Source of the DNA: Escherichia coli
Lineage (GTDB): Bacteria; Pseudomonadota; Gammaproteobacteria; Enterobacterales; Enterobacteriaceae
Direction: 5' to 3' (one strand)
Length of the DNA stretch: 64,000 nucleotides
Assembly: GCF_041248615.1 (NCBI RefSeq)
Contig: NZ_CP158426.1
The notes below the pieces were generated by a model. It did no database searches and was not told the DNA's origin. It saw only the letters and a list, made by a program, of their open reading frames with translations. Position 1 is the first letter of the stretch; each line of letters begins with the position of its first letter. Of this stretch, positions 7,129 to 42,199 are shown in pieces. The position numbers were made by a program, and so were the translations under genes.

Positions 7129-8870
7129 TGAATCACAAAGACTGGGATTTGGTCAACCGCCGCTTGGTGGCAAAAATGTTGTCTGAGCTGGAGTATGAGC
7201 AGGTTTTCCACGCGGAATCTCAGGGCGATGACCGCTACTGCATTAACCTGCCGGGAGCACAATGGCGCTTCATCGCTGAACGTGGTATCTGGGGCTGGCT
7301 CTGGATTGATGCTCAAACTCTGCGCTGCGCGGACGAGCCAGTACTGGCTCAGACGCTGCTGATGCAGCTAAAGCAGGTACTGTCAATGAGCGATGCAACC
7401 GTTGCTGAGCATATGCAGGATTTGTATTCCACGCTGCTGGGCGACCTGCAACTGCTGAAAGCCCGTCGCGGGCTGAGCGCCAGTGACCTGATTAATCTTA
7501 GTGCCGACCGCCTGCAATGCCTGCTGAGCGGTCATCCTAAATTCGTTTTTAATAAAGGTCGCCGTGGCTGGGGTAAAGAGGCGCTGGAACGATATGCGCC
7601 AGAGTATGCCAACACCTTTAGACTGCACTGGCTGGCGGTAAAACGTGAACATATGATCTGGCGCTGTGATAACGAGATGGATATTCATCAGTTGTTGACG
7701 GCCGCAATGGATCCGCAGGAGTTTGCCCGCTTCAGTCAGGTCTGGCAGGAAAACGGACTGGATCATAACTGGCTGCCGCTGCCTGTACATCCGTGGCAGT
7801 GGCAGCAAAAAATCGCCACCGACTTCATCGCTGATTTTGCCGAAGGCAGGATGGTGTCTCTCGGCGAGTTTGGCGACCAGTGGCTCGCCCAGCAGTCGCT
7901 GCGTACCCTGACCAACGCCAGTCGCCGGGGTGGGCTGGATATCAAGCTGCCGCTGACCATCTACAACACCTCATGCTACCGGGGGATTCCTGGCAGATAC
8001 ATCGCTGCCGGACCACTGGCTTCACGCTGGCTACAACAGGTTTTTGCGACCGACGCTACCCTGGTGCAAAGCGGTGCAGTGATCCTTGGTGAACCGGCTG
8101 CAGGCTATGTCTCCCATGAAGGCTATGCCGCGCTTGCCCGGGCTCCCTATCGCTACCAGGAAATGCTTGGTGTTATCTGGCGGGAGAATCCGTGCCGCTG
8201 GCTGAAACCGGATGAAAGTCCGGTTCTGATGGCAACACTGATGGAGTGCGACGAAAACGATCAGCCGCTGGCAGGCGCATATATAGACCGCTCCGGGCTG
8301 GACGCTGAAACCTGGCTTACGCAACTGTTCCGGGTGGTCGTGGTTCCTCTGTATCACCTGCTTTGCCGCTACGGTGTCGCGCTTATTGCACATGGACAAA
8401 ATATAACGCTCGCCATGAAAAAGGGGGTTCCACAGCGTGTTCTGCTGAAAGACTTCCAGGGCGATATGCGGCTGGTGAAAGAAGAGTTCCCCGAAATGGA
8501 CTCTTTGCCTCAGGAGGTTCGTGATGTTACATCCCGCCTGAGTGCGGACTACTTAATCCATGATTTGCAGACGGGTCACTTCGTGACAGTACTGCGTTTT
8601 ATTTCGCCACTGATGGTTCGTCTTGGCGTACCTGAACGGCGATTTTATCAACTGCTGGCAGCAGTGTTGAGTGATTACATGAAAAAACATCCACAAATGT
8701 CAGAGCGTTTTGCGCTTTTCTCACTTTTCAGGCCACAAATCATTCGCGTGGTGCTGAACCCGGTAAAACTGACCTGGCCTGATCTGGATGGCGGCAGCCG
8801 CATGCTGCCGAATTACCTTGAGGATCTGCAAAATCCGCTGTGGCTGGTAACTCAGGAATATGAATCATGA
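7128..8870 (+). CDS. iucC: Aerobactin synthetase IucC (NIS synthetase)
   Basis: 580-aa ORF overlapping iucB stop; paralogous to IucA. Confidence 0.93.
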   Translation: MNHKDWDLVNRRLVAKMLSELEYEQVFHAESQGDDRYCINLPGAQWRFIAERGIWGWLWIDAQTLRCADEPVLAQTLLMQLKQVLSMSDATVAEHMQDLYSTLLGDLQLLKARRGLSASDLINLSADRLQCLLSGHPKFVFNKGRRGWGKEALERYAPEYANTFRLHWLAVKREHMIWRCDNEMDIHQLLTAAMDPQEFARFSQVWQENGLDHNWLPLPVHPWQWQQKIATDFIADFAEGRMVSLGEFGDQWLAQQSLRTLTNASRRGGLDIKLPLTIYNTSCYRGIPGRYIAAGPLASRWLQQVFATDATLVQSGAVILGEPAAGYVSHEGYAALARAPYRYQEMLGVIWRENPCRWLKPDESPVLMATLMECDENDQPLAGAYIDRSGLDAETWLTQLFRVVVVPLYHLLCRYGVALIAHGQNITLAMKKGVPQRVLLKDFQGDMRLVKEEFPEMDSLPQEVRDVTSRLSADYLIHDLQTGHFVTVLRFISPLMVRLGVPERRFYQLLAAVLSDYMKKHPQMSERFALFSLFRPQIIRVVLNPVKLTWPDLDGGSRMLPNYLEDLQNPLWLVTQEYES

Positions 8871-10144
8871 AAAAAAGTGTCGATTTTATTGGTGTAGGGA
8901 CAGGGCCATTTAATCTCAGCATTGCTGCGTTGTCACATCAGATCGAAGAACTGGACTGTCTCTTCTTTGATGAACATCCTCATTTTTCCTGGCATCCGGG
9001 TATGCTGGTACCGGATTGTCATATGCAGACCGTCTTTCTGAAAGATCTGGTCAGTGCTGTTGCACCTACAAATCCCTACAGCTTTGTTAACTATCTGGTG
9101 AAGCACAAAAAGTTCTATCGCTTCCTTACAAGCAGACTACGTACAGTATCCCGTGAAGAGTTTTCTGACTACCTCCGCTGGGCTGCTGAAGATATGAATA
9201 ACCTGTATTTCAGTCATACCGTTGAAAACATTGATTTCGATAAAAAACGTCGATTGTTTCTGGTGCAAACCAGCCGGGGAGAATATTTTGCCCACAATAT
9301 CTGCCTTGGTACAGGAAAACAACCTTATTTACCACCCTGTGTGAAGCATATGACACAATCCTGTTTCCATGCCAGTGAAATGAATCTTCGTCGGCCGGAC
9401 CTTAGTGAAAAACGGGTAACCGTGGTTGGTGGAGGACAGAGTGGTGCAGACCTGTTCCTTAATGCATTACGCGGGGAATGGGGAGAAGCGGCGGAAATAA
9501 ACTGGATCTCCCGGCGGAATAATTTTAACGCACTGGATGAGGCTGCTTTTGCTGATGAGTATTTTACACCTGAATATATTTCAGGCTTCTCCGGACTGGA
9601 GGAAGATATTCGCCATCAGTTACTGGATGAGCAGAAAATGACATCGGATGGCATCACTGCCGATTCTTTACTGACCATTTATCGTGAGTTGTACCACCGT
9701 TTTGAAGTTCTGAGAAAACCAAGAAATATCCGTCTGCTACCCAGCCGCTCGGTAACAACTCTGGAAAGTAGTGGTCCTGGCTGGAAGTTGCTGATGGAGC
9801 ATCATCTGGATCAGGGCAGGGAGAGCCTGGAAAGTGATGTGGTGATTTTCGCCACAGGTTACCGTTCTGCGTTGCCACAAATACTTCCCTCACTGATGCC
9901 GCTGATCACCATGCACGATAAGAACACCTTTAAAGTGCGTGATGACTTCACTCTGGAATGGAGTGGCCCGAAAGAGAACAACATCTTCGTGGTCAACGCC
10001 AGTATGCAAACCCATGGCATCGCCGAACCTCAGCTCAGCCTGATGGCATGGAGATCTGCACGTATTCTTAATCGTGTAATGGGACGTGATTTATTCGATC
10101 TCAGTATGCCGCCCGCCCTGATTCAGTGGCGCAGCGGCACCTAG
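8867..10144 (+). CDS. iucD: L-lysine N6-monooxygenase IucD
   Basis: 425-aa ORF with N-terminal FAD-binding GVGTGP motif; overlaps iucC stop. Confidence 0.92.
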   Translation: MKKSVDFIGVGTGPFNLSIAALSHQIEELDCLFFDEHPHFSWHPGMLVPDCHMQTVFLKDLVSAVAPTNPYSFVNYLVKHKKFYRFLTSRLRTVSREEFSDYLRWAAEDMNNLYFSHTVENIDFDKKRRLFLVQTSRGEYFAHNICLGTGKQPYLPPCVKHMTQSCFHASEMNLRRPDLSEKRVTVVGGGQSGADLFLNALRGEWGEAAEINWISRRNNFNALDEAAFADEYFTPEYISGFSGLEEDIRHQLLDEQKMTSDGITADSLLTIYRELYHRFEVLRKPRNIRLLPSRSVTTLESSGPGWKLLMEHHLDQGRESLESDVVIFATGYRSALPQILPSLMPLITMHDKNTFKVRDDFTLEWSGPKENNIFVVNASMQTHGIAEPQLSLMAWRSARILNRVMGRDLFDLSMPPALIQWRSGT

Positions 10145-10225
10145 GGAAAACGCAGCCGGAGGCTGCTTCTTTAACTCGCTACACAGCATCTTTGGGCTGA
10201 TTTTTTCCGCCCGTGTGGAGGAATA

Positions 10226-21529: not shown

Positions 21530-21992
21530 ATCGCTTCCGGGAAGCCTTTCAGGCCGTCCACGAAGGCGATAAGGATATCGTTCAGGCCGCGATTTTTCAG
21601 TTCCGTCAGTACATTCAGCCAGAACTTTGCACCTTCATTTTCGGCCAGCCACATATCCAGCAGCTCTTTCTGACCGTCGGTATTGATGCCCAGCGCGAGG
21701 AACACCGCTTTGTTAATGACACTCCCGCTGTGACGAACCTTAACCACAATACAGTCAAGATAAACAATGGGATACAGTGCATCCAACGGTCGGTTTTGCC
21801 ATTCAGAGACCTGTTCTTTAACCGCATCGGTCACTTTGGATATCAGCGTGGGCGAGACATCGGCGTCGTACATTTCTTTGAAGGCTGAGGTAATTTCGCG
21901 GGTAGTCATCCCTCTGGCATACAGCGCCAGGATCTGGTTGTCCATGCCGGTAATGCGGGTCTGATTTTTCTTCACCAGTTGTGGTTCGAAGG
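21530..21992. repeat. ~462-bp direct repeat of 121-582 (shared 3' segment of two IS256-family variants)
   Basis: Identical antisense translation and matching nucleotides; 5' parts of the two elements diverge. Confidence 0.8.
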
Positions 21993-22323
21993 AACCATCA
22001 CGATCAGGTGGAGTACGTAATTCCATCGGCCCGTCGGTAGTGGTGACGGTTTTCGTGGAATAGCCATTACGGAAGTTGGTTCCCGATTTGGTCTGATTTT
22101 TTTCATGTCCCAGATGGTGAGTCAGTTCAGCGTTGAGAGCTGCCTCAACACTTATTTTCTTGAGCAGGCGATCGAACTGACTGAGATCTTCAGGGGTTTT
22201 GAGATTTTTGGCCAGTTCGTTAGCCAGAGCCTGCAATTGTGTGTCGTCCATAATTTAGCTTTCATTTGATGTTGAATTGAACATATCAAAATCAGGCAAT
22301 TACATAAATCTATGTACAGGCTC
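21531..22323 (-). pseudogene. IS256-family element (variant), 3'-truncated at the IS200 fragment; left inverted repeat at ~22310-22323
   Basis: 263-aa transposase N-terminal part; rc of the end reads gagcctgtacatagatttatgtaattgcc. Confidence 0.75.
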
Positions 22324-23171
22324 AATGCCGGCGCTGGTATTGTAGAAATCAATCCTGCCCCTGATGTCGGAGATACTCTCGTTAACCTTCCTGATTGTAT
22401 CCTCTGCTCAGTCAATGGGTTGCCAATGGGGGCACCCTTTCCTGACTGATTCGTCATTTCATTCTTATTGTATGTTACTGGCATTACACCAGTGCTGGCA
22501 TACTTTCCTGCGTGTCTGCACCGGTTTGACAAAATTCAACAGGGATAAAATAGTGCAGGAAACTGAAGCATTACTTGCAGAGCCGGGAGACATCCGGCGT
22601 TTTATTCAACAGGCAGTGGATCACTGGCCGCATTTTCTGATTGTCCACTTCACACACAATTCGACAGAAGGAAACATCAACGGACAACAGATTCATGCAT
22701 TCTGAACTTCCTTTTATGAACGTATTACTGAACGTAATCACACTGACAGTCCATCCTCGCCGGTGGTATTACGCTGGTTGCGTGAACAACATGAAGGAAC
22801 AACAATACCTGTTGCTGCTCAGCCATGTGGTGGCATGCAGCGGCACTTTAAGCAGCACAGGGCACTTTGAACTGCTCCGGGAATCCTGGAGACTAAACTC
22901 CCTGAGAAAGAGGTAAACAGGATGAGTATGATTCACAATTGGGGTAATTTGTTCCATTGCCTCAAATGCTGGCTGTACGCCACAGACTCTGCGTGTCTGG
23001 GTTAGCCAGTATGAGCGGGATACAGGGGCGCTTCACACATAACATTCCTTCTAATTTGCATAATTAATTACACTGATAGTCACATTCAATAACTATCATA
23101 AGCTATCATCTGGCTGACTGTTATTTCGCAACAGTTATTGAGTAAATCTTTAACCTGTTAACAGAGGGTTT

Positions 23172-23696
23172 ATGAAACGTAAACTTATTGCCTTTGTGAT
23201 TCTGGCTACATCATCCTGTGGATATGCAGCCACCAAAGATGTAACAATGAATCTTGTTGATAGTGACGGAAAAGAGCGAAATATTGGTAAAATAACCATC
23301 CAGAAGACACCCTACGGGCTGCTGTTCACCCCTGATCTTCACTCCTTACCCGCCGGCATTCATGGTTTTCATGTACATGAAAACGCAAGTTGTGCTCCTG
23401 CCCTGAAAGATGGAAAAACTGTCGCTGCTTTATCTGCAGGTGGTCACTTTGACCCGGAAAAAACAGGGAAGCATCTCGGTCCATGGTCTCCTGATGGCCA
23501 CCTAGGTGATCTCCCTGCGCTTTATGTCACTCATGACGGAAAAGCAACCTACCCGGTGCTTGCGCCAAGACTATCTGAATTAAAGGAGCTCGATGGCCGT
23601 TCGCTAATGCTCCACGCAGGAGGTGATAATCATGATGACCATCCTGAACCTCTAGGTGGCGGTGGTGCAAGAATTGCCTGTGGTATCATCCCATAA
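23172..23696 (+). CDS. sodC: Periplasmic Cu,Zn superoxide dismutase
   Basis: Signal peptide; Cu/Zn-SOD motifs GFHVHE and [12 protein letters not shown]; GAGG RBS. Confidence 0.85.
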
Positions 23697-23824
23697 TCAA
23701 TCAGGTAAGGGATATCCTCCCTTACCCTTAATCTTCCCTGGCGGCATGTGCATATCTTTCAGTTACTGTGAGATACCTGTATTACGGTGTCTTTTTAGCT
23801 CACAGAAATATCAGACAGCCCGTT

Positions 23825-24050
23825 TCAGTGTTTTATTACCTTAATCTTTTTACGGCATTCTTCAGCTCTTGCGCATGCTATTTTTTCACCTGTTTCATAA
23901 CATTGCTGGCAGCCTAATCCAAATTTCATCGCCATATCATAACCTTCCCGAAAACCTCGGAACCACGCGTTACGAAGGTATTCATCATATTCCCCGTAGT
24001 CAATAATAACCATTTTATTTTCATGGGATTTTCCGGTATTCTCACTCATT
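23825..24050 (-). CDS. Hypothetical small Cys-rich protein (C-x2-C-x8-C-x5-C)
   Basis: Start MSENTGK preceded by GAGG RBS; convergent with sodC. Confidence 0.35.
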
Positions 24051-25027
24051 TTCGATACCTCAATGCTTACAACAGAAAAGTATACTTTTACGAAGTTCGC
24101 CTTTGCAGGACTATATAAAGTTATCACTGGATGCAAGAGCCGGAAATCATGTATATCAGGATCAACTTTGTAATTCAATAACATATTATCCAGTGAAAAA
24201 GTAAGTATATTTAAGCTGGGGAAGGAGAAGGGGGACTTAATTTGATATTTTCATCAATAATATTATTTTACCTCCTCCATTATTCATTCAGGCCTGGTTC
24301 CGGGCGTAATTCCGATTTCTCTGTTGAAGCGATGCATTTATATTTAAATATTCACCTGTCATTGAATTTTATTTGAAATAGGAGAAAATCTCCTCCTGTA
24401 CTACAGATAACCCGGAATGTTCCTCGAAAGAAAATTCTGGCGCAGAATTCACGCCCGGTTCTGTTCAACATCATGCAGGATAACGATACCGAAACGTTAA
24501 ACTCTGGCAATTCTCGTGTTATACACAGGCAGGAGTGATTACTACGGTAAGAATTGCTGAAAAGGGGAGAACACTGAAGGCCTTATTCGCGAAGAATAAA
24601 GGAGACATTTCATGTAAATTATTATCAGAGATAACCTTCTCCAGGCGCTTTTGTTCGCTTCCTGAATTGCTACCTGATACATATTTACGGGATGCCAGCC
24701 TGGTGACTATAACTCCGAAAAGACCGATTATTGTATTGCGTGCATCCGGCATGTTTACAATGTACGCTGGTATCTAACGGAGTCTGACACAGATGCACGC
24801 AGGTGTATATTTTAACGTAATTATCCGGAAGGAACAGTATATTTTAATGCGGGAGTTGCATGAGCGGTATACGGGAGAAACTATCAGACCATGGGAGCTA
24901 CAGAGGTGCTTAAGTCTCGTAACATTATAATCTGCTCACCTGACTGGTGCTATTCTCACCTCAACACCAATGCACAAATAGCCTGGCTTATCGTTAATAA
25001 AAGTTACTCATACCGGGAATCCAGTGA

Positions 25028-25696
<669 letters not shown>

Positions 25697-25726: not shown

Positions 25727-28700
25727 CTAAGCGAGATTATGGTTTTCAAATTGTTCCGGGCTGAGACCGCCACAGGCACTGTGACGACGCCAGCGATTGT
25801 AATCACACTCGATATAATTAAACACCGTTGCCCGCATTATTTCCCGGCTGCTAAAGCGTTCCCCGTGGATACATTCCACCTTCAGCGAATGAAAGAAGCT
25901 TTCCACACAGGCATTGTCATAACAGTAGCCTTTCGCACTCATACTGCCACGCAGGTTGTGTCGCTTCAGCAGCGCCTGATAATCCCCTGAACAGTATTGA
26001 CCACCACGGTCCGTATGAGCAATGACGCTTTCCGGGCGTCTTCTCCGCCACAACGCCATTTGCCGTGCATCACAGGCCAGTTGTGCTGTCATTCGCGGTG
26101 ACATCGACCAGCCAATGACGGCGCGTGACCACAGGTCGATGACTACTGTGAGATACAACCAGCCCTCATCGGTACGCAGTAGAGTAAGAGGCAGGGCGTA
26201 GTCGGACTATTTCCCTGCCTCTCCTCCCCGAACCGGACATGCACCTTTCAGCGCATCCGGCTCTCCATTTAAACGCTGGCGAACGCCATTGCCACTTCTG
26301 TAAAGCGCGATGTATACGTCTTTCTGGTTTCCGTCCTCAGATAGGGATTACCTTCGGGTAGCCGCCAGCGGAACAGCTTCTTGCCTTGCCCCACCAACCG
26401 GTACAGTATTTCGCCGCTGAGCTTGCCGTGATTGGTTTTACCAAATAAAACCCACGTTTTGCTCTGACCCGGTTTCGGTGATTTACACCACCACCTCATC
26501 AGGGAAGCGATACTTGTACGGTATTTGCGGGCCAGCCAGTGAGCCAGCTTCTAGAACACGACACGGTCGATATAACTGAAGACTTTGGCCTTAAAATCAA
26601 CGAACTGATAGAACATGGCCCAGCCTTTCAGTTTTCGGTTGAGTTGTTCAGCCATATCGACTTTGCTTTCACTGTAGTTGCCTGATAACAGTGCTGTCAG
26701 CGATGCGGCGAAGTTTCTGGCTTTCTCCAGCGGGATCGTTGAGACCACTTGCATCTCGCCATAACGACTGCGTTTGCGAATGATCCTGTGCCCCAGAAAG
26801 ATAAAGCCGTCATTAACATGGGTGATTTTAGTCTTATCCATGTTCAGCCTGAGTTTCAGACTGCCTTCGAGCACACCCCGACACTCCTCCCTGATGGCTT
26901 CCGCCTGTGCTTTGGTGCCTTTGACGATGAGGACAAAATCATCGGCATAGCGGCAGTACGCCACCGCGGGTTTCCACTGCCAGTTTTCTCTGACCGCCGT
27001 ACTTCGGCCCCGTTGGATACTGTTATTCCAGTACCACCGATCTTTTCTTGCTTTCCCGCTCAGGTAGCGCTCATGCAGGTATTGATCGAACTCATTCAGC
27101 ATGATGTTCGACAATAGCGGCGATATAACACCGCCCTGTGGCACACCTTCACTGGCCGCCCGAAAGAGACCGACATCGATATGTCCCGCCTTGATGGTTT
27201 TCCACAGCAGAGTCATGAAACGTGCGTCACTGATCCTGCGGCGTACAGCCTTCATCAGCAGTCGATGATGTACGGTGTCGAAGTAACTGGACAGGTCGCC
27301 TTCAATCACCCAGCGTCCCCGGGTTTCACCGCAGTCGGTGAGCTGTAATTTCACCGTGCGGATCGAGTGGTGGACACTGCGCTCAGGCCGGAAGCCATAT
27401 GAGAGCGTATGAAAATCACTCTCCCATATCGGCTCCATCGCCATCAGCATGGCCCGCTGAACAATACGATCCCGCAACGCGGGGATACCCAGTGGTCGCA
27501 GTTTGCCATTGCTTTTAGGGATGTAAACCCGCCTGGCGGGCAAGGGCTGGTAGTGGCCTGAGAGTAATTCATCCCTGAGGATTTGCAGCTCAACAGCCAG
27601 TCTGGCCTGTAGCATTGTTTTGTTCACGCCATCAACACCGGGGGTATTCGCCCCCTTTGATGAAAGCGTGATCCGCGCCGCTTCAGCCAGCCATTCTGGT
27701 TGTGTTATCAGACGCAGCAGCCGTTGAATCCGTAGGGACGGATCGGTGGCTGCCCATGTGGCAAGCTTGCGTTGCATTTCGCTGATTATCAAAGGTCTTC
27801 ACCTCGTTAGGTCAGTTAATTTACGTCGCAGACACATTCAAACTGCTTCCCTTCGCCATGTAATGGGCTTTCCCCATCGCGGACTACTACGGAAGCTCCG
27901 CCAGCCAGCGCGTCATCGGAGCCATGCCCCCTTAACATCCGTCGCTGACCTTCCCCGGTTTGCCTGACTGGACTCAGACATACTGAGGAGGCTGCCCGTC
28001 GCACTCTTTATCCTTGCTTGCCGCAAGTTGGCAGAAGTCAGCAACGCGAGCGTGATAGACGCTGCTGCCCCGGAGTTTCGCATACATGTCAAAACACCTT
28101 CGACCGGCAGTGCTTACGTATCACTGCCAGTTCCTCCTGCACGGCCTGTCAGATCACGTAGGCCGTGGTGACGTTTTCAACCCACAGAGGCGGATTAACG
28201 GGTTCATATTCTTAAGCCTTTCAGTACTTAACCTTGAGGATCATCTCGGCTTAGTGATCTCGCCTCAATCCCCGTTGTCAGCGGGTTACATCACCCTGCG
28301 GGCATGCCGCAGGTCACTGCCGCTCAGGTTCTCCACCGTCACACCCGGTGGGATTGTTGGGTTTCTCATCGTGAGTTACCGGTTCAATATTCCAGACAGA
28401 CTCGTGGTTCATTTGAGCGTCTATGCTCGCCCTGAACTCCGGGCACACAGTACGTGATGTCACCCACCCACTTCTGGTTCGGGCCGCTGGCGCTGAAGTC
28501 CTGCTCCAGCAGATTCTCCAATACGGGCAGGCCATGTGCACGGTAGCTGGCCGGGCTGAACTTCCGGCTGGCTTTCGCCCGCAGCCCCTGACGACGCAGG
28601 CTGGCGGCAATGGTTTTAATATTGAACTCCGGCAGTTCGTCAGCAAGGCGGGGAGCACCGTATCGCTGCTTTGCCTCAAAGAATGCCTTATGGACAGCGG

Positions 28701-30903: not shown

Positions 30904-32130
30904 ATGTCAGGAACTATACGAAAGATAATAAAAGAGGATGATGTATTTCATTCTTCTATTCGCCGTATTGAATGGTTGTTTGAAACATTCTCTTCTGTCT
31001 GTTTGTCTTTTTCCGGAGGAAAAGACTCCACTGTGCTGCTCCATCTTGCGGCTGATGTGGCTCGCAGGAAGAAACGTCGTTTCTCTGTATTATTCATTGA
31101 CTGGGAAGCTCAGTATCAGTGCACCATTGAACATGTTCAGAAGATGCGGGAAATGTACCGGGATGTGACGGATACCTTTTACTGGGTGGCACTCCCCCTG
31201 ACTACGGTAAACGGTGTCTCTCAGTTTCAGCCGGAATGGATATGCTGGGAACCAGGTGTGGAGTGGGTTCGTCAGCCACCAGATGACGCTATTACAGATA
31301 TGTCGTATTTCCCATTTTATCGGTATGCCATGACGTTTGAAGAATTTGTTCCGGCATTTTCTTCCTGGTTTGCCGGTAACCGGTGTGGAGTGGCAATACT
31401 GACTGGTGTTCGTGCTGATGAATCGCTCAATCGCTTTATGGGACTGGTGTCTCAGCGCAAACTGAGATATGCAGATGATAAACCCTGGACCACAGCGTCA
31501 CCTGAAGGGTTTTATTACACCTTGTATCCGTTGTATGACTGGAAAGCCCGTGATATATGGATATATAACGCCAGAACCCGGGCTATCTACAATCCCCTGT
31601 ATGACCTGATGTACCGTGCCGGCGTGCCGTTACGCAACATGCGGGTCTGTGAGCCTTTTGGCCCGGAACAGCGTAAGGGACTGTGGCTTTACCATGTTCT
31701 GGAGCCGGAAACCTGGGCCAGGATGTGTGAGCGGGTGTCGGGTGCTGCCAGCGGGGCGCTTTATGCCAATGAGAGCGGTGCCTATTTTGCCCTGCGTAAG
31801 CGTATCACGAAGCCACCTCATCATACCTGGCGTAGCTATGCGATGTTCCTGCTGGATGTGATGCCGGAAAGAACGGCAGAACATTACCGTAATAAAATTG
31901 CTGTCTACCTGCGCTGGTATCAGACGCGGGGCTTCCCGGATGACATCCCGGATGAACAGGAGAATGACCTGGGGAGCCGGGATATCCCGTCCTGGCGACG
32001 TATCTGTAAGACACTCATAAAGAATGATTTCTGGTGTCGGACCCTCTCCTTCAGTCCGAACAAACCCCGGCACTATGAACGTTATCTGCAGCGTATGAAA
32101 GAAAGGAGGAAGGAATGGGGGATTCTGTGA
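30904..32130 (+). CDS. ibrA: PAPS-reductase-like PP-loop ATP pyrophosphatase, IbrA/DndC-like
   Basis: PP-loop motif SGGKDS near N-terminus; 408 aa; AT-rich promoter tract upstream; coupled to the next ORF. Confidence 0.7.
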   Translation: MSGTIRKIIKEDDVFHSSIRRIEWLFETFSSVCLSFSGGKDSTVLLHLAADVARRKKRRFSVLFIDWEAQYQCTIEHVQKMREMYRDVTDTFYWVALPLTTVNGVSQFQPEWICWEPGVEWVRQPPDDAITDMSYFPFYRYAMTFEEFVPAFSSWFAGNRCGVAILTGVRADESLNRFMGLVSQRKLRYADDKPWTTASPEGFYYTLYPLYDWKARDIWIYNARTRAIYNPLYDLMYRAGVPLRNMRVCEPFGPEQRKGLWLYHVLEPETWARMCERVSGAASGALYANESGAYFALRKRITKPPHHTWRSYAMFLLDVMPERTAEHYRNKIAVYLRWYQTRGFPDDIPDEQENDLGSRDIPSWRRICKTLIKNDFWCRTLSFSPNKPRHYERYLQRMKERRKEWGIL

Positions 32131-32759
32131 CACCTGAGGTGGAAGTATTGAGCAACATGATTCGACAGTACTTCAGTCAGGAACGATCTGAAGAAGAGAC
32201 CATACGAGCCCTTAATCATCTGCGCAGGGTGTTGCATGAGGTCAGCCCTTTTGCACAGGAGCCTGTGGATTGTGTGTTGTGGGTGAAAGCGGATGAGGTG
32301 GTGGCCAACGATTACAATCCCAATGTCATGTCTTCCAGTGAAAAAAAACTGCTTAAACATTCACTGGAGCAGGATGGATTCACGCAGCCTGTGGTGGTTT
32401 CGGAAGAGAAGGAGCATTATCTGGTCGTGGATGGTTTTCATCGTCAGTTGCTGGGCAGGAAAGCGGATACGAGAAAACGTCTGAAGGGCTGGCTGCCAGT
32501 GGCCTGTATTAATCCAGAGAGAAAGGGACAGGCATCACGTATTGCCGCAACCATACGGCATAACCGTGCCAGGGGAAAACACCAGGTAACGTCAATGTCT
32601 GACATTGTCAGGGACCTCTCACGTCTGGGCTGGACAGATGAGCGTATTGGCACAGAGTTGGGCATGGACCAGGATGAAGTGCTGAGGCTGAAACAGATTA
32701 GCGGGCTGACAGAGCTGTTTCAGGAAGAGGATTTCAGCCCTGCATGGACGGTTCGTTAA
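32115..32759 (+). CDS. ibrB: ParB/Srx-fold DGQHR-like protein, IbrB/DndB-like
   Basis: DGFHR motif (VVVDGFHRQLLG); start overlaps ibrA stop by 16 nt with AGGAGGAAGG RBS. Confidence 0.7.
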   Translation: MGDSVTPEVEVLSNMIRQYFSQERSEEETIRALNHLRRVLHEVSPFAQEPVDCVLWVKADEVVANDYNPNVMSSSEKKLLKHSLEQDGFTQPVVVSEEKEHYLVVDGFHRQLLGRKADTRKRLKGWLPVACINPERKGQASRIAATIRHNRARGKHQVTSMSDIVRDLSRLGWTDERIGTELGMDQDEVLRLKQISGLTELFQEEDFSPAWTVR

Positions 32760-40939: not shown

Positions 40940-42199
40940 ATGCTGGTATCTAACTATAATTATGTAATCAGCCGTCGTCGTTTACTGCAAGGTGCGGGCG
41001 CCATGTGGCTATTGAGCGTAAGTCAGGTCAGCCTGGCTGCGGTCAGCCAGGTCGTGGCGGTACGCGTCTGGCCTGCGTCCAGCTACACCCGCGTGACGGT
41101 AGAATCAAATCGTCAGCTGCAATATAAGCAGTTCGCGTTAAGTAACCCTGAACGTGTGGTGGTGGATATCGAAGATGTAAACCTGAACTCGGTACTCAAG
41201 GGGATGGCGGCACAAATTCGTGCAGACGACCCGTTCATCAAGTCGGCGCGCGTCGGGCAATTTGACCCGCAAACCGTACGCATGGTTTTTGAATTAAAGC
41301 AAAACGTAAAACCGCAGCTGTTTGCCCTTGCGCCGGTCGCCGGGTTTAAAGAGCGTCTGGTGATGGACCTCTATCCGGCCAATGCACAGAATATGCAGGA
41401 CCCGCTGCTGGCGCTGCTGGAGGATTACAACAAAGGCGACCTCGAAAAGCAGGTGCCGCCAGCACAAAGTGGTCCACAACCGGGTAAAGCAGGGCGTGAT
41501 CGTCCGATTGTCATTATGCTTGACCCCGGCCACGGTGGCGAAGACCCCGGTGCGGTGGGGAAATACAAAACACGCGAAAAAGACGTGGTATTGCAAATAG
41601 CTCGCCGTCTGCGCTCTCTGATCGAAAAAGAGGGTAATATGAAGGTGTACATGACGCGCAATGAAGACATCTTCATTCCGTTGCAAGTGCGTGTAGCAAA
41701 AGCACAGAAACAACGTGCTGACCTTTTTGTTTCTATCCATGCTGATGCCTTTACCAGTCGCCAGCCGAGCGGTTCTTCCGTGTTTGCGCTTTCGACCAAA
41801 GGCGCGACAAGTACTGCGGCAAAATATCTGGCACAAACCCAGAACGCCTCGGACTTGATTGGCGGCGTGAGCAAAAGCGGTGACCGCTATGTCGACCACA
41901 CCATGTTCGATATGGTGCAGTCTCTGACCATTGCCGACAGCCTGAAGTTGGGTAAAGCGGTGCTGAATAAGCTCGGTAAAATCAACAAGCTGCATAAAAA
42001 TCAGGTTGAACAGGCCGGGTTTGCCGTGCTGAAAGCACCTGATATTCCCTCCATTCTGGTCGAAACGGCGTTTATCAGTAACGTTGAGGAAGAGCGCAAA
42101 CTGAAAACGGCAAGATTCCAACAACAAGTGGCAGAATCTATCCTAGAGGGAATTAAAGAGTATTTTTCGGATATAGACGCGTTAGCGAGAAAAGCATAA
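40940..42199 (+). CDS. amiC: N-acetylmuramoyl-L-alanine amidase AmiC-like with Tat signal; first ~10 codons AT-rich
   Basis: Twin-arginine motif [11 protein letters not shown]; amidase_3 region ([11 protein letters not shown]...); abrupt GC shift after codon ~10. Confidence 0.8.

Follow-up and report, generated by a model that had tools for sequence, protein, structure and literature searches.

An accessory sodC of the SodC-F clade and a conserved small convergent gene in an IS-decayed island of Escherichia coli

Extra, robust Cu,Zn superoxide dismutases carried on prophages of Salmonella and EHEC are established fitness or virulence factors. The chromosomal SodC of Escherichia coli is monomeric and RpoS-dependent, and phage morons are autonomous promoter-gene-terminator cassettes. 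Characterised enzymes of the clade considered here, SodC-F1 and SodC-F2 of E. coli O157:H7, form dimers, surpass SodC in stability and activity, are RpoS-independent and contribute to H2O2 resistance; an AASC lipobox provides for their partial anchoring to lipid, and SodC-F1, the export and dual SpI/SpII processing of which were shown experimentally, is protease- and chelator-resistant (D'Orazio et al., 2008; PMC2569942). Extra sodC-F-like copies occur in other E. coli strains, including SMS-3-5 (D'Orazio et al., 2008; PMC2569942).

The locus described here lies in a stretch of 64,000 nucleotides (hereafter the window) from the chromosome of E. coli NRZ14408, within a mosaic aerobactin/sit/iha island in which the RefSeq annotation records aerobactin iuc/iut, sitABCD and iha and which is heavily decayed, with dozens of IS pseudogenes. 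A complete gene for a Cu,Zn superoxide dismutase of 174 amino acids, predicted to be exported, is located on the plus strand (sodC, 23172–23696), and a small gene on the minus strand (23825–24049, 74 codons and a stop), convergent with sodC, encodes WP_001470144.1, a 'hypothetical protein' in RefSeq. A preliminary description of the same DNA had claimed a periplasmic-type Cu,Zn-SodC with its own ribosome binding site and an AT-rich upstream region, bounded by IS fragments and with no prophage genes nearby, and all of this was borne out. The ORF matches Pfam and NCBIfam profiles; the Shine-Dalgarno sequence GAGG, read from the sequence at 23164–23167 (plus strand) and kept in a related copy in Klebsiella pneumoniae, follows an AT-rich region; pseudogenes of the IS256 family (21514–22251) and of the IS3 family (24975–25606 and 25727–26188) are annotated on either side in the identical RefSeq record; and the annotation of the whole 64-kb window includes neither a phage structural gene nor a fragment of one. 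The convergent Cys-rich ORF was likewise present, with a good ribosome binding site and the reported cysteine spacing, its length alone having to be corrected from 75 to 74 residues. We regard the locus as, quite probably, a horizontally acquired two-gene module of about 1.2 kb in an IS-decayed island of ExPEC/APEC type, which combines an accessory SodC of the SodC-F clade with a genuine small gene. It extends what is already known by a modest step and does not amount to a new system.

The comparison with the described systems can be made as follows. With SodC-F1/F2, encoded by lambdoid prophages of O157:H7 and found as an identical type in Stx2a-converting phages, the window SodC shares the clade, the length class and the xSSC/AASC-GYAA end of the leader with its lipidatable Cys; in contrast, its gene lies outside any lambdoid prophage tail region, in an IS-bounded chromosomal island module, has beside it a conserved small gene that is missing from the prophage copies, and has diverged by 20%. 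Salmonella SodCI (Gifsy-2) and SodCIII (Fels-1) are likewise acquired second or third periplasmic Cu,Zn superoxide dismutases with the catalytic residues in common, but they are encoded by prophage tail-region morons and are only 61.5% and 62.1% identical to the window SodC, respectively. The chromosomal E. coli SodC belongs to the same enzyme family and has the same metal ligands, whereas its identity is 56.6% and its clade a separate one; at such divergence, the chromosomal sodC is not detected by blastn with the window gene, and NRZ14408 possesses the island sodC on top of the chromosomal one. Finally, the compact arrangement, in which a single gene stands between a conserved upstream block and hairpin terminators, is that of a phage moron, and homologous units are found between phage tail genes; the unit in the window, however, lies outside any phage, includes a second, convergent gene, and has a putative promoter.

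The assignment of the enzyme is based on matches to Pfam PF00080, Sod_Cu (E=6e-32; 111.3 bits against a cutoff of 28.9), and to the NCBIfam SodC equivalog NF007628 (218.4 bits against a cutoff of 165, covering profile positions 1–172 of 172), while the best match in the PDB is Salmonella SodCI (1e-64). In an alignment of 21 SodC sequences, including SodCI and E. coli SodC, residues H67, H69, H92, H101, H110, D113, H148, C74, C170 and R167 are invariant. By reference to established SodC structures, we take H67, H69, H92 and H148 to be the copper ligands, H92 (bridging), H101, H110 and D113 the zinc ligands, C74 and C170 the intrasubunit disulphide, and R167 the active-site arginine. The dN/dS ratio against the Klebsiella copy is 0.09. 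The product is predicted to be active as a superoxide dismutase. On inspection, the first 20 residues look like a signal peptide with a basic n-region (MKRK), a hydrophobic core (LIAFVILA) and a putative cleavage site (GYA|A), closely resembling the leader of SodC-F1 and with a possible lipobox Cys16 in the end TSSC-GYAA; the island SodC is presumably exported and may be partly lipid-anchored. By analogy with SodC-F1, to which it is 80% identical, it may also be dimeric and resistant to proteases and chelators. Such an enzyme would add a second periplasmic superoxide-scavenging activity to that of the housekeeping chromosomal SodC, and, as for SodC-F and SodCI, would probably shield the cell against exogenous or host-derived reactive oxygen.

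The sodC gene appears to move as a self-contained unit made of an upstream block, the gene and hairpin terminators, with relatives on phages, plasmids and islands. The upstream block (23044–23107, plus strand) is AT-rich, is kept in Klebsiella, in a metagenome locus (L012) and in the copies of the P0010 lineage, and is a putative promoter region; it includes the –10-like hexamer CATAAT at 23059–23064, which is TATAAT in Klebsiella. A consensus scan of the locus gave no convincing sigma-70 promoter, and only loose resemblances to Fur, Zur or PhoP boxes could be seen by eye upstream of sodC. Beginning 8 nt past the sodC stop codon, a GC-rich hairpin (23704–23726) folds with a 9-bp stem, is terminator-like on both strands and might act as a bidirectional terminator; it is kept in Klebsiella and lies within the block common to the P0010-lineage copies. 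A second hairpin (23770–23802, plus strand), with the stem GAGAUACC/GGUGUCUU followed by UUUUU in the RNA fold, is the likely intrinsic terminator of sodC.

The limits of the module were given by comparison with a K. pneumoniae contig (L004), which shares about 1.18 kb (23036–24215), comprising sodC, the small ORF and the flanking control regions, at 85.1% nucleotide identity over 1181 bp, the homology ending sharply on both sides. In Klebsiella the module lies next to an ABC transporter of the iron type and to an IS110-like end, and this transporter showed no homology to the degenerate iron ABC genes at 62765–63988 of the window. A transposon or MITE was considered and rejected, as no convincing terminal inverted or direct repeats were present. 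Among 5426 complete E. coli genomes, about 125 (121–125, i.e. some 2%, many of them from poultry and human isolates) contain a segment of 1401 bp including the island-specific junctions at an identity of at least 99%, and a nucleotide search found the prophage-type sodC copy (76% nucleotide identity) in about 570 further genomes. Both E. coli and E. albertii have IncF plasmids with truncated forms of the module; on six plasmids, sodC is accompanied by a small gene cut by an IS3 element. The SodC-F enzyme clade also circulates without phage, on the aerobactin/sit/iha island and on IncF plasmids, which widens the known routes by which resistance to the oxidative burst may spread among ExPEC/APEC-type strains.

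As to the relation between the two genes, the alternative that survives best is that the small ORF is real but a hitch-hiker, which was a neighbour of sodC in a donor of low GC3, was carried along with it, and has a function unrelated to SodC; tentatively, we would give this reading somewhat less than an even chance. It agrees with the plasmids, where sodC stays intact while the IS3 element cuts the small gene, and with the orientation of the genes, which are convergent and not co-transcribed. It also agrees with the tblastn searches, which gave no match to the small protein either at the sister SodC loci (plasmid-type P0010, a Salmonella F-like plasmid, and the P0019 and P0016 contigs) or at the sodC loci of O157 and Stx2a prophages. 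Because of the IS-cut plasmid copies and of these sister loci, SodC needs no small gene, which on the sequences compared appears clearly dispensable for the enzyme. In the most distant lineage (L012), moreover, the small gene is located upstream of sodC and is divergent from it, with an IS3 remnant separating the two; since only three lineages are known and the arrangement is altered in one of them, the linkage may reflect the shared ancestry of neighbours. GC3 is about 34% for both genes, which suggests a common foreign origin. On the other hand, the two genes have stayed side by side despite divergence to 57%/71% amino acid identity and despite a rearrangement, the small gene was seen in all the databases searched only beside the accessory SodC clade and never away from it, and it is under purifying selection in three hosts.

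A closer relation, in which the 74-residue protein is a dedicated partner of SodC, is conceivable but improbable. The protein would be a cytoplasmic, dimeric helical hairpin with a thiol site sensitive to redox state or to Cu/Zn, formed by the CxxC at the N-terminus of a helix and by C65 of the other protomer, and this site would tune sodC expression or feed the metal supply of the periplasmic enzyme. If true, the protein would represent a new family of small proteins that goes with mobile oxidative-stress modules, either of sodC alone or of sodC with katG, the latter combination being found at the L012 locus.

The origin of sodC was considered with the aid of a neighbour-joining tree (200 bootstraps, distance-based only). 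The window SodC groups with those of Klebsiella, P0009, plasmids and phages at 89% bootstrap, and a larger clade adding L012 and P0019 is supported at 82%; SodCI and SodCIII are outside the supported clade, and the chromosomal E. coli SodC pairs with the Klebsiella chromosomal SodC at 100% bootstrap in a clade of its own. Beyond its own sub-branch, the closest relatives of the window SodC are the plasmid SodC (82% amino acid identity) and the EHEC lambdoid/Stx2a SodC-F (80% amino acid, 76% nucleotide identity). Consequently, it adds one more enzyme to an accessory clade already described, alongside SodC-F1/F2, and the earlier proposal that sodC is horizontal cargo rather than the chromosomal orthologue was supported.

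It could be supposed that sodC arrived as a moron in the tail region of a lambdoid prophage, of which IS activity and deletion subsequently removed everything but sodC. Among characterised relatives, the nearest are indeed prophage morons, the EHEC prophage and Stx2a copies of sodC being located between tail genes I and J. In addition, the aligned copies of the P0010 lineage (plasmid-type L007 and chromosomal L011), which cluster with the prophage SodCs, have in common with the window the segment 23044–23737 (about 74% nucleotide identity), covering the upstream block, sodC and the first of the two downstream hairpins, and the extreme decay of the island would be in keeping with such a loss. 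However, the absence of any annotated phage structural gene or fragment in the 64 kb, the identity of the boundaries (23036 and 24215) in Klebsiella, where the neighbours are non-phage, the prophage sodC copies without the small gene, and the non-phage contexts of the deeper branches of the clade make this origin unlikely. Given the contexts of the deeper branches, a phage-free route of acquisition is plausible, but the acquisition independent of a phage put forward in the preliminary description is not demonstrable, with a plasmid SodC and the prophage SodC-F as the nearest relatives beyond the sub-branch of the window SodC.

Whether the small ORF is real had been left in doubt at first, and its conservation in Klebsiella and in a metagenome settled the matter in its favour. 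A chance frame in conserved non-coding DNA lying 3' of sodC, be it an sRNA or a regulatory region, might be suspected for an ORF without a family and annotated merely as hypothetical; indeed, dozens of ORFs of at least 40 amino acids are present in this AT-rich stretch, so that an ORF of 74 codons alone is within chance, and one antisense frame also has a lowish dN/dS, 0.27, in the E. coli/Klebsiella pair. Conservation in other hosts, however, places the ORF above chance. In Klebsiella it is intact and free of internal indels (81% amino acid identity, dN/dS 0.24, binomial p=6e-4), while indels flank it immediately outside; in the metagenome lineage (L012–L014) it is intact at 57% amino acid identity, with pS 0.93 (synonymous sites saturated) against pN 0.24. 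The open frame, start, stop and Shine-Dalgarno sequence are kept in three lineages, in all of which (E. coli, Klebsiella and metagenome) the gene adjoins a SodC of the same clade. Adding that no Rfam family matches in 22300–25000 and that AlphaFold returned a confident fold from six sequences, a chance frame is very unlikely, and the pattern is that of a genuine protein-coding gene under purifying selection. An extended frame of 119 amino acids, from an ATG at 24184, was rejected: it is broken in Klebsiella by a 1-nt indel, and therefore the 74-residue form is the conserved one.

Exhaustive phmmer searches of 1.84 billion cluster representatives gave no homologues beyond E. coli, Klebsiella and the one metagenome lineage, nor did word-indexed and profile searches of 5.8 billion clusters or searches of GTDB species genomes and IMG/VR; a match to a 382-residue protein (P0129) was spurious, being a translated tandem repeat. 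No significant family was found in Pfam, PHROG or NCBIfam, and no fold or family match pointed to a function. For one homologue only, there were sub-threshold matches to DUF7574 (E=0.023), two PHROGs (E=0.05–0.11) and Rmf_CrpP (NCBIfam, E=0.095). The small protein resembles Rmf/CrpP in size, in having two helices and in a short motif, R-x2-W-x2-G-[FW]-R-E, but its NCBIfam score of 12.3 bits is below the cutoff of 28, and membership was rejected, as was homology to RMF, for which hhalign gave a probability of 8% over 13 residues. As far as these databases reach, the protein is an orphan family known only beside the accessory SodC clade, and the literature searched contained nothing relevant on the island sodC or on WP_001470144 and WP_000823671.

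The AlphaFold model, built from the six sequences, is a helical hairpin (pLDDT 84, core above 90), and the protein is predicted to be cytoplasmic. Conservation is seen in the first helix, which is rich in aromatic residues and Arg, in the CxxC with which the second helix begins, and in one more Cys; C47, C50 and C65 are invariant. Although the pattern C47-x2-C50-x8-C59-x5-C65 is present in both the E. coli and Klebsiella copies, the four-Cys metal site proposed in the preliminary description, which would make the protein a monomeric, zinc-ribbon-like Cys4 metal binder, does not hold up and is most improbable, for position 59 has Tyr instead of Cys in the most divergent homologue (P0128, L012), residues 47–68 form one continuous helix in the model, carrying all four thiols, which are unable to converge within a monomer, and no family or fold of metal-binding proteins, zinc ribbons included, gave a match. 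Most likely, the product is a small thiol- or metal-dependent accessory or regulatory protein, and with its redox-type cysteines it is a clear case of a small protein that is conserved and under selection, yet completely uncharacterised.

The small gene is preceded by its own Shine-Dalgarno sequence, GAGG (CCTC on the plus strand, 24058–24061), 8 nt before the ATG and kept in Klebsiella. The region further upstream (24062–24215, minus strand) is conserved at 79.5% nucleotide identity to Klebsiella and includes a perfect palindrome, AAAAGTATACTTTT, at 24076–24089, as well as a candidate TTGCAT/TATAGT promoter; the promoter and operator roles of this region are putative. The 141-nt intergenic region, where both hairpins are located, has an RNA fold z-score of –2.3.

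The preliminary description of a Cu,Zn-SodC gene with a convergent Cys-rich ORF between IS fragments was borne out by the ORFs, the Pfam and NCBIfam matches and the annotation, RefSeq already containing both genes. The sodC gene (window 23172-23696, + strand, 174 codons, WP_000823671.1) matched Pfam Sod_Cu (E=6e-32) and, over its full length, the NCBIfam SodC equivalog (218 bits, cutoff 165). The small ORF (23825-24049, - strand, hypothetical protein WP_001470144.1) is separated from it by 128 bp; a GAGG stands 8 nt 5' of its ATG and the Cys pattern (C47-x2-C50-x8-C59-x5-C65) was as claimed, but it has 74 codons, one below the 75 first given. An IS256-family pseudogene (21514-22251) lies upstream of sodC, and two IS3-family pseudogenes (24975-25606 and 25727-26188) lie downstream of the pair.

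In a 21-sequence alignment, the columns of the Cu ligands (H67, H69, H92, H148) and Zn ligands (H92, H101, H110, D113), the disulphide pair C74/C170 and the active-site R167 were present and invariant, and dN/dS against the Klebsiella pneumoniae copy was 0.09. The best match among solved structures was Salmonella SodCI (1e-64), with E. coli SodC behind (1.4e-55). Amino acid identity to the window SodC was 82% for E. coli plasmid SodC, 80% for O157 prophage and Stx2a-phage SodC, ~65-67% for Serratia/Pseudomonas chromosomal SodC, 62% for Fels-1 SodCIII, 61.5% for Gifsy-2 SodCI and 56.6% for chromosomal E. coli SodC. Grouping with the chromosomal orthologue, which would have refuted the initial reading, was not seen: in a neighbour-joining tree, the window SodC joined the phage and plasmid forms (89% bootstrap), and chromosomal E. 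coli and Klebsiella SodC formed a separate clade (100%). The gene is therefore not the chromosomal orthologue but a new member, on a non-phage vehicle, of the accessory clade known from SodC-F. Its leader architecture (…ATSSC-GYAA|T) is like that of SodC-F1/F2, the lambdoid-prophage enzymes of EHEC O157:H7, which are dimeric, exceed monomeric SodC in activity and stability, are RpoS-independent and partially lipid-anchored via an AASC lipobox, and contribute to H2O2 resistance (D'Orazio et al., PMC2569942). By 2008, additional sodC-F-like copies had been noted in E. coli other than EHEC (PMC2569942); the non-phage island vehicle adds to this known clade, an unsurprising finding, though of use to epidemiological work on oxidative-stress resistance among ExPEC/APEC-like strains.

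Of 5426 complete E. coli genomes, 125 contain a 1.4-kb segment with the island-specific junctions at 99% identity or more (coverage at least 80% in 121 of them), and many of the listed isolates came from chickens or humans. Six E. coli or E. albertii plasmids, five of them typed conjugative, carry only 813 bp of the locus (window 23108-23920), so that the conserved upstream block 23044-23107 is missing; in all six the small ORF is cut by an IS3 element. The plasmid sodC adjoins yacAB toxin-antitoxin genes, and on L002, an IncF plasmid, repA is ~2 kb from it; homology begins at window 23108 in the loci of L002 (2892-3749) and of a second plasmid, L003 (3364-4221). A variant with 76% nucleotide identity, found in ~570 further E. 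coli genomes, is the SodC-F1/F2 enzyme of D'Orazio et al. (PMC2569942), and in the O157 and Stx2a-phage records inspected it lies in a lambdoid prophage, flanked by tail genes I and J. Plasmid A of E. coli strain C8 (L025 3001-3525) encodes a SodC of 59% identity that groups weakly with SodCI and has an S6-family autotransporter peptidase as its neighbour; E. coli IncF plasmids therefore carry several independent SodC lineages.

The small ORF is a genuine protein-coding gene, an orphan that is so far uncharacterised. The same convergent pair occurs on a K. pneumoniae contig (L004/L005), with 85% nucleotide identity over window 23036-24215 and homology stopping sharply at both ends, 23036 and 24215. 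In this comparison the small ORF contains no indel and has a dN/dS of 0.24 (13.5 synonymous and 17.5 non-synonymous changes; binomial p=6e-4), and dS is equal in both genes (0.43, and 0.46 for sodC). What is conserved is the 74-aa form, since an alternative 119-aa frame is broken by an indel of 1 nt immediately 5' of the ORF and was ruled out. A relative from a metagenome (L012-L014) has a homologue of 75 aa and 57% identity, with saturated synonymous sites (pS 0.93) and a pN of 0.24 (0.16 in the core). In L012 it again adjoins a SodC of the same clade (71% identity) but in a different arrangement: it lies upstream of that sodC in divergent orientation, an IS3 remnant separates the two, and katG flanks it on its far side. 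No further homologues were found in 1.84 billion cluster representatives, 100,044 GTDB species genomes and IMG/VR, nor by single-sequence and profile searches of a 5.8-billion-cluster database, and no family of Pfam, PHROG or NCBIfam was matched. The GC3 of both window genes (~34%, window GC 49.6%) points to a common foreign source.

L012 759-5525 (metagenome SRR33065487) is an oxidative-stress cluster of an 83-aa ORF that by eye resembles a thioredoxin fold, then katG, the homologue of the small gene, the IS3 remnant and sodC; unannotated window 53560-53647 has 77% identity to L012:1032-1119. The small-gene start is preceded, 27 nt upstream, by a perfect palindrome of 14 nt, AAAAGTATACTTTT (window 24076-24089), which is kept in Klebsiella and could be an operator or 5'-UTR element.

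The metal-binding four-Cys arrangement proposed for the small protein did not hold up: the AlphaFold model puts all four Cys on the second helix, and the distant homologue has Tyr in place of Cys59, which all but rules out a monomeric Cys4 site. The helix Y21-D22…R26-x-A-W-x-R-G-F-R-E-G-Y is invariant, as are C47-Q-Q-C50 at the N-terminus of the second helix, E52-T-G-E-K56 and C65. Redox-active and Cu(I)-binding motifs typically have a CxxC in such a position, and our working guess is a small cytoplasmic factor, possibly a dimer, that depends on thiols or metal. A weak motif match to Rmf/CrpP was rejected as homology (12 bits; 8% probability in hhalign when aligned with RMF). Exclusive co-occurrence with this SodC clade in three lineages suggests a link to SodC and speaks against a hitch-hiker of unrelated function; plasmids and the examined prophage loci, where sodC persists without the small gene, weaken the link and favour the hitch-hiker, to which we give slightly less than an even chance. 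A dedicated SodC-related role seems unlikely.

As to the route of acquisition, window 23044-23737 (AT-rich upstream block, sodC and a hairpin at 23704-23726) is shared, at ~74% nucleotide identity, with copies of the sister SodC lineage P0010 on a plasmid-type (L007) and a chromosomal (L011) contig that were aligned at the DNA level. Such a unit in different carriers argues that sodC moves as a moron-like cassette, which would travel among phages, plasmids and islands. That the island sodC is the remnant of a decayed prophage is unlikely, because deeper branches of the clade lie in non-phage contexts (metagenome L012, the P0019 lineage beside a fimbrial operon, a Salmonella F-like plasmid) and the Klebsiella copy has identical module ends without any phage gene. 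Positions 1-95 of L004, abutting the module, are 84% identical to window 20030-20124, the end of an IS110-family element 3 kb from sodC, and both hosts therefore have this IS family beside the module.

Positions 2403672-2467671 of the E. coli NRZ14408 chromosome (NZ_LT599825.1) are identical to the window. Its full 64 kb make up a mosaic island, with iucABCD-iutA, sitABCD, a PAPS-reductase/IbrB-like pair, an extra amiC, iha, PhoX, ICE remnants and dozens of IS pseudogenes; the annotation contains no phage structural genes anywhere in the window, in agreement with the reported lack of prophage genes near sodC. In RefSeq iucD (8867-10200) is annotated as frameshifted, in NRZ14408 and SCU-115 alike, with the rest of the cluster intact, and the aerobactin pathway of the island may therefore be defective. 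Directly past the IS3 debris lies a group II intron reverse transcriptase/maturase gene, ltrA, with an internal stop (26269-27777); the ibrAB-type pair (30904-32759) consists of intact PAPS-reductase-like and IbrB-like genes. The extra amiC and the PhoX-family gene, the latter followed by degenerate iron ABC permease and ATPase genes, lie within 40940-42199 and 60689-63988, and these iron ABC genes showed no homology to the transporter adjoining the Klebsiella module. Downstream of iha, TIGR03757/TIGR03756 integrating-conjugative-element pseudogenes (53845-55211) hint at an ICE origin for part of the island.
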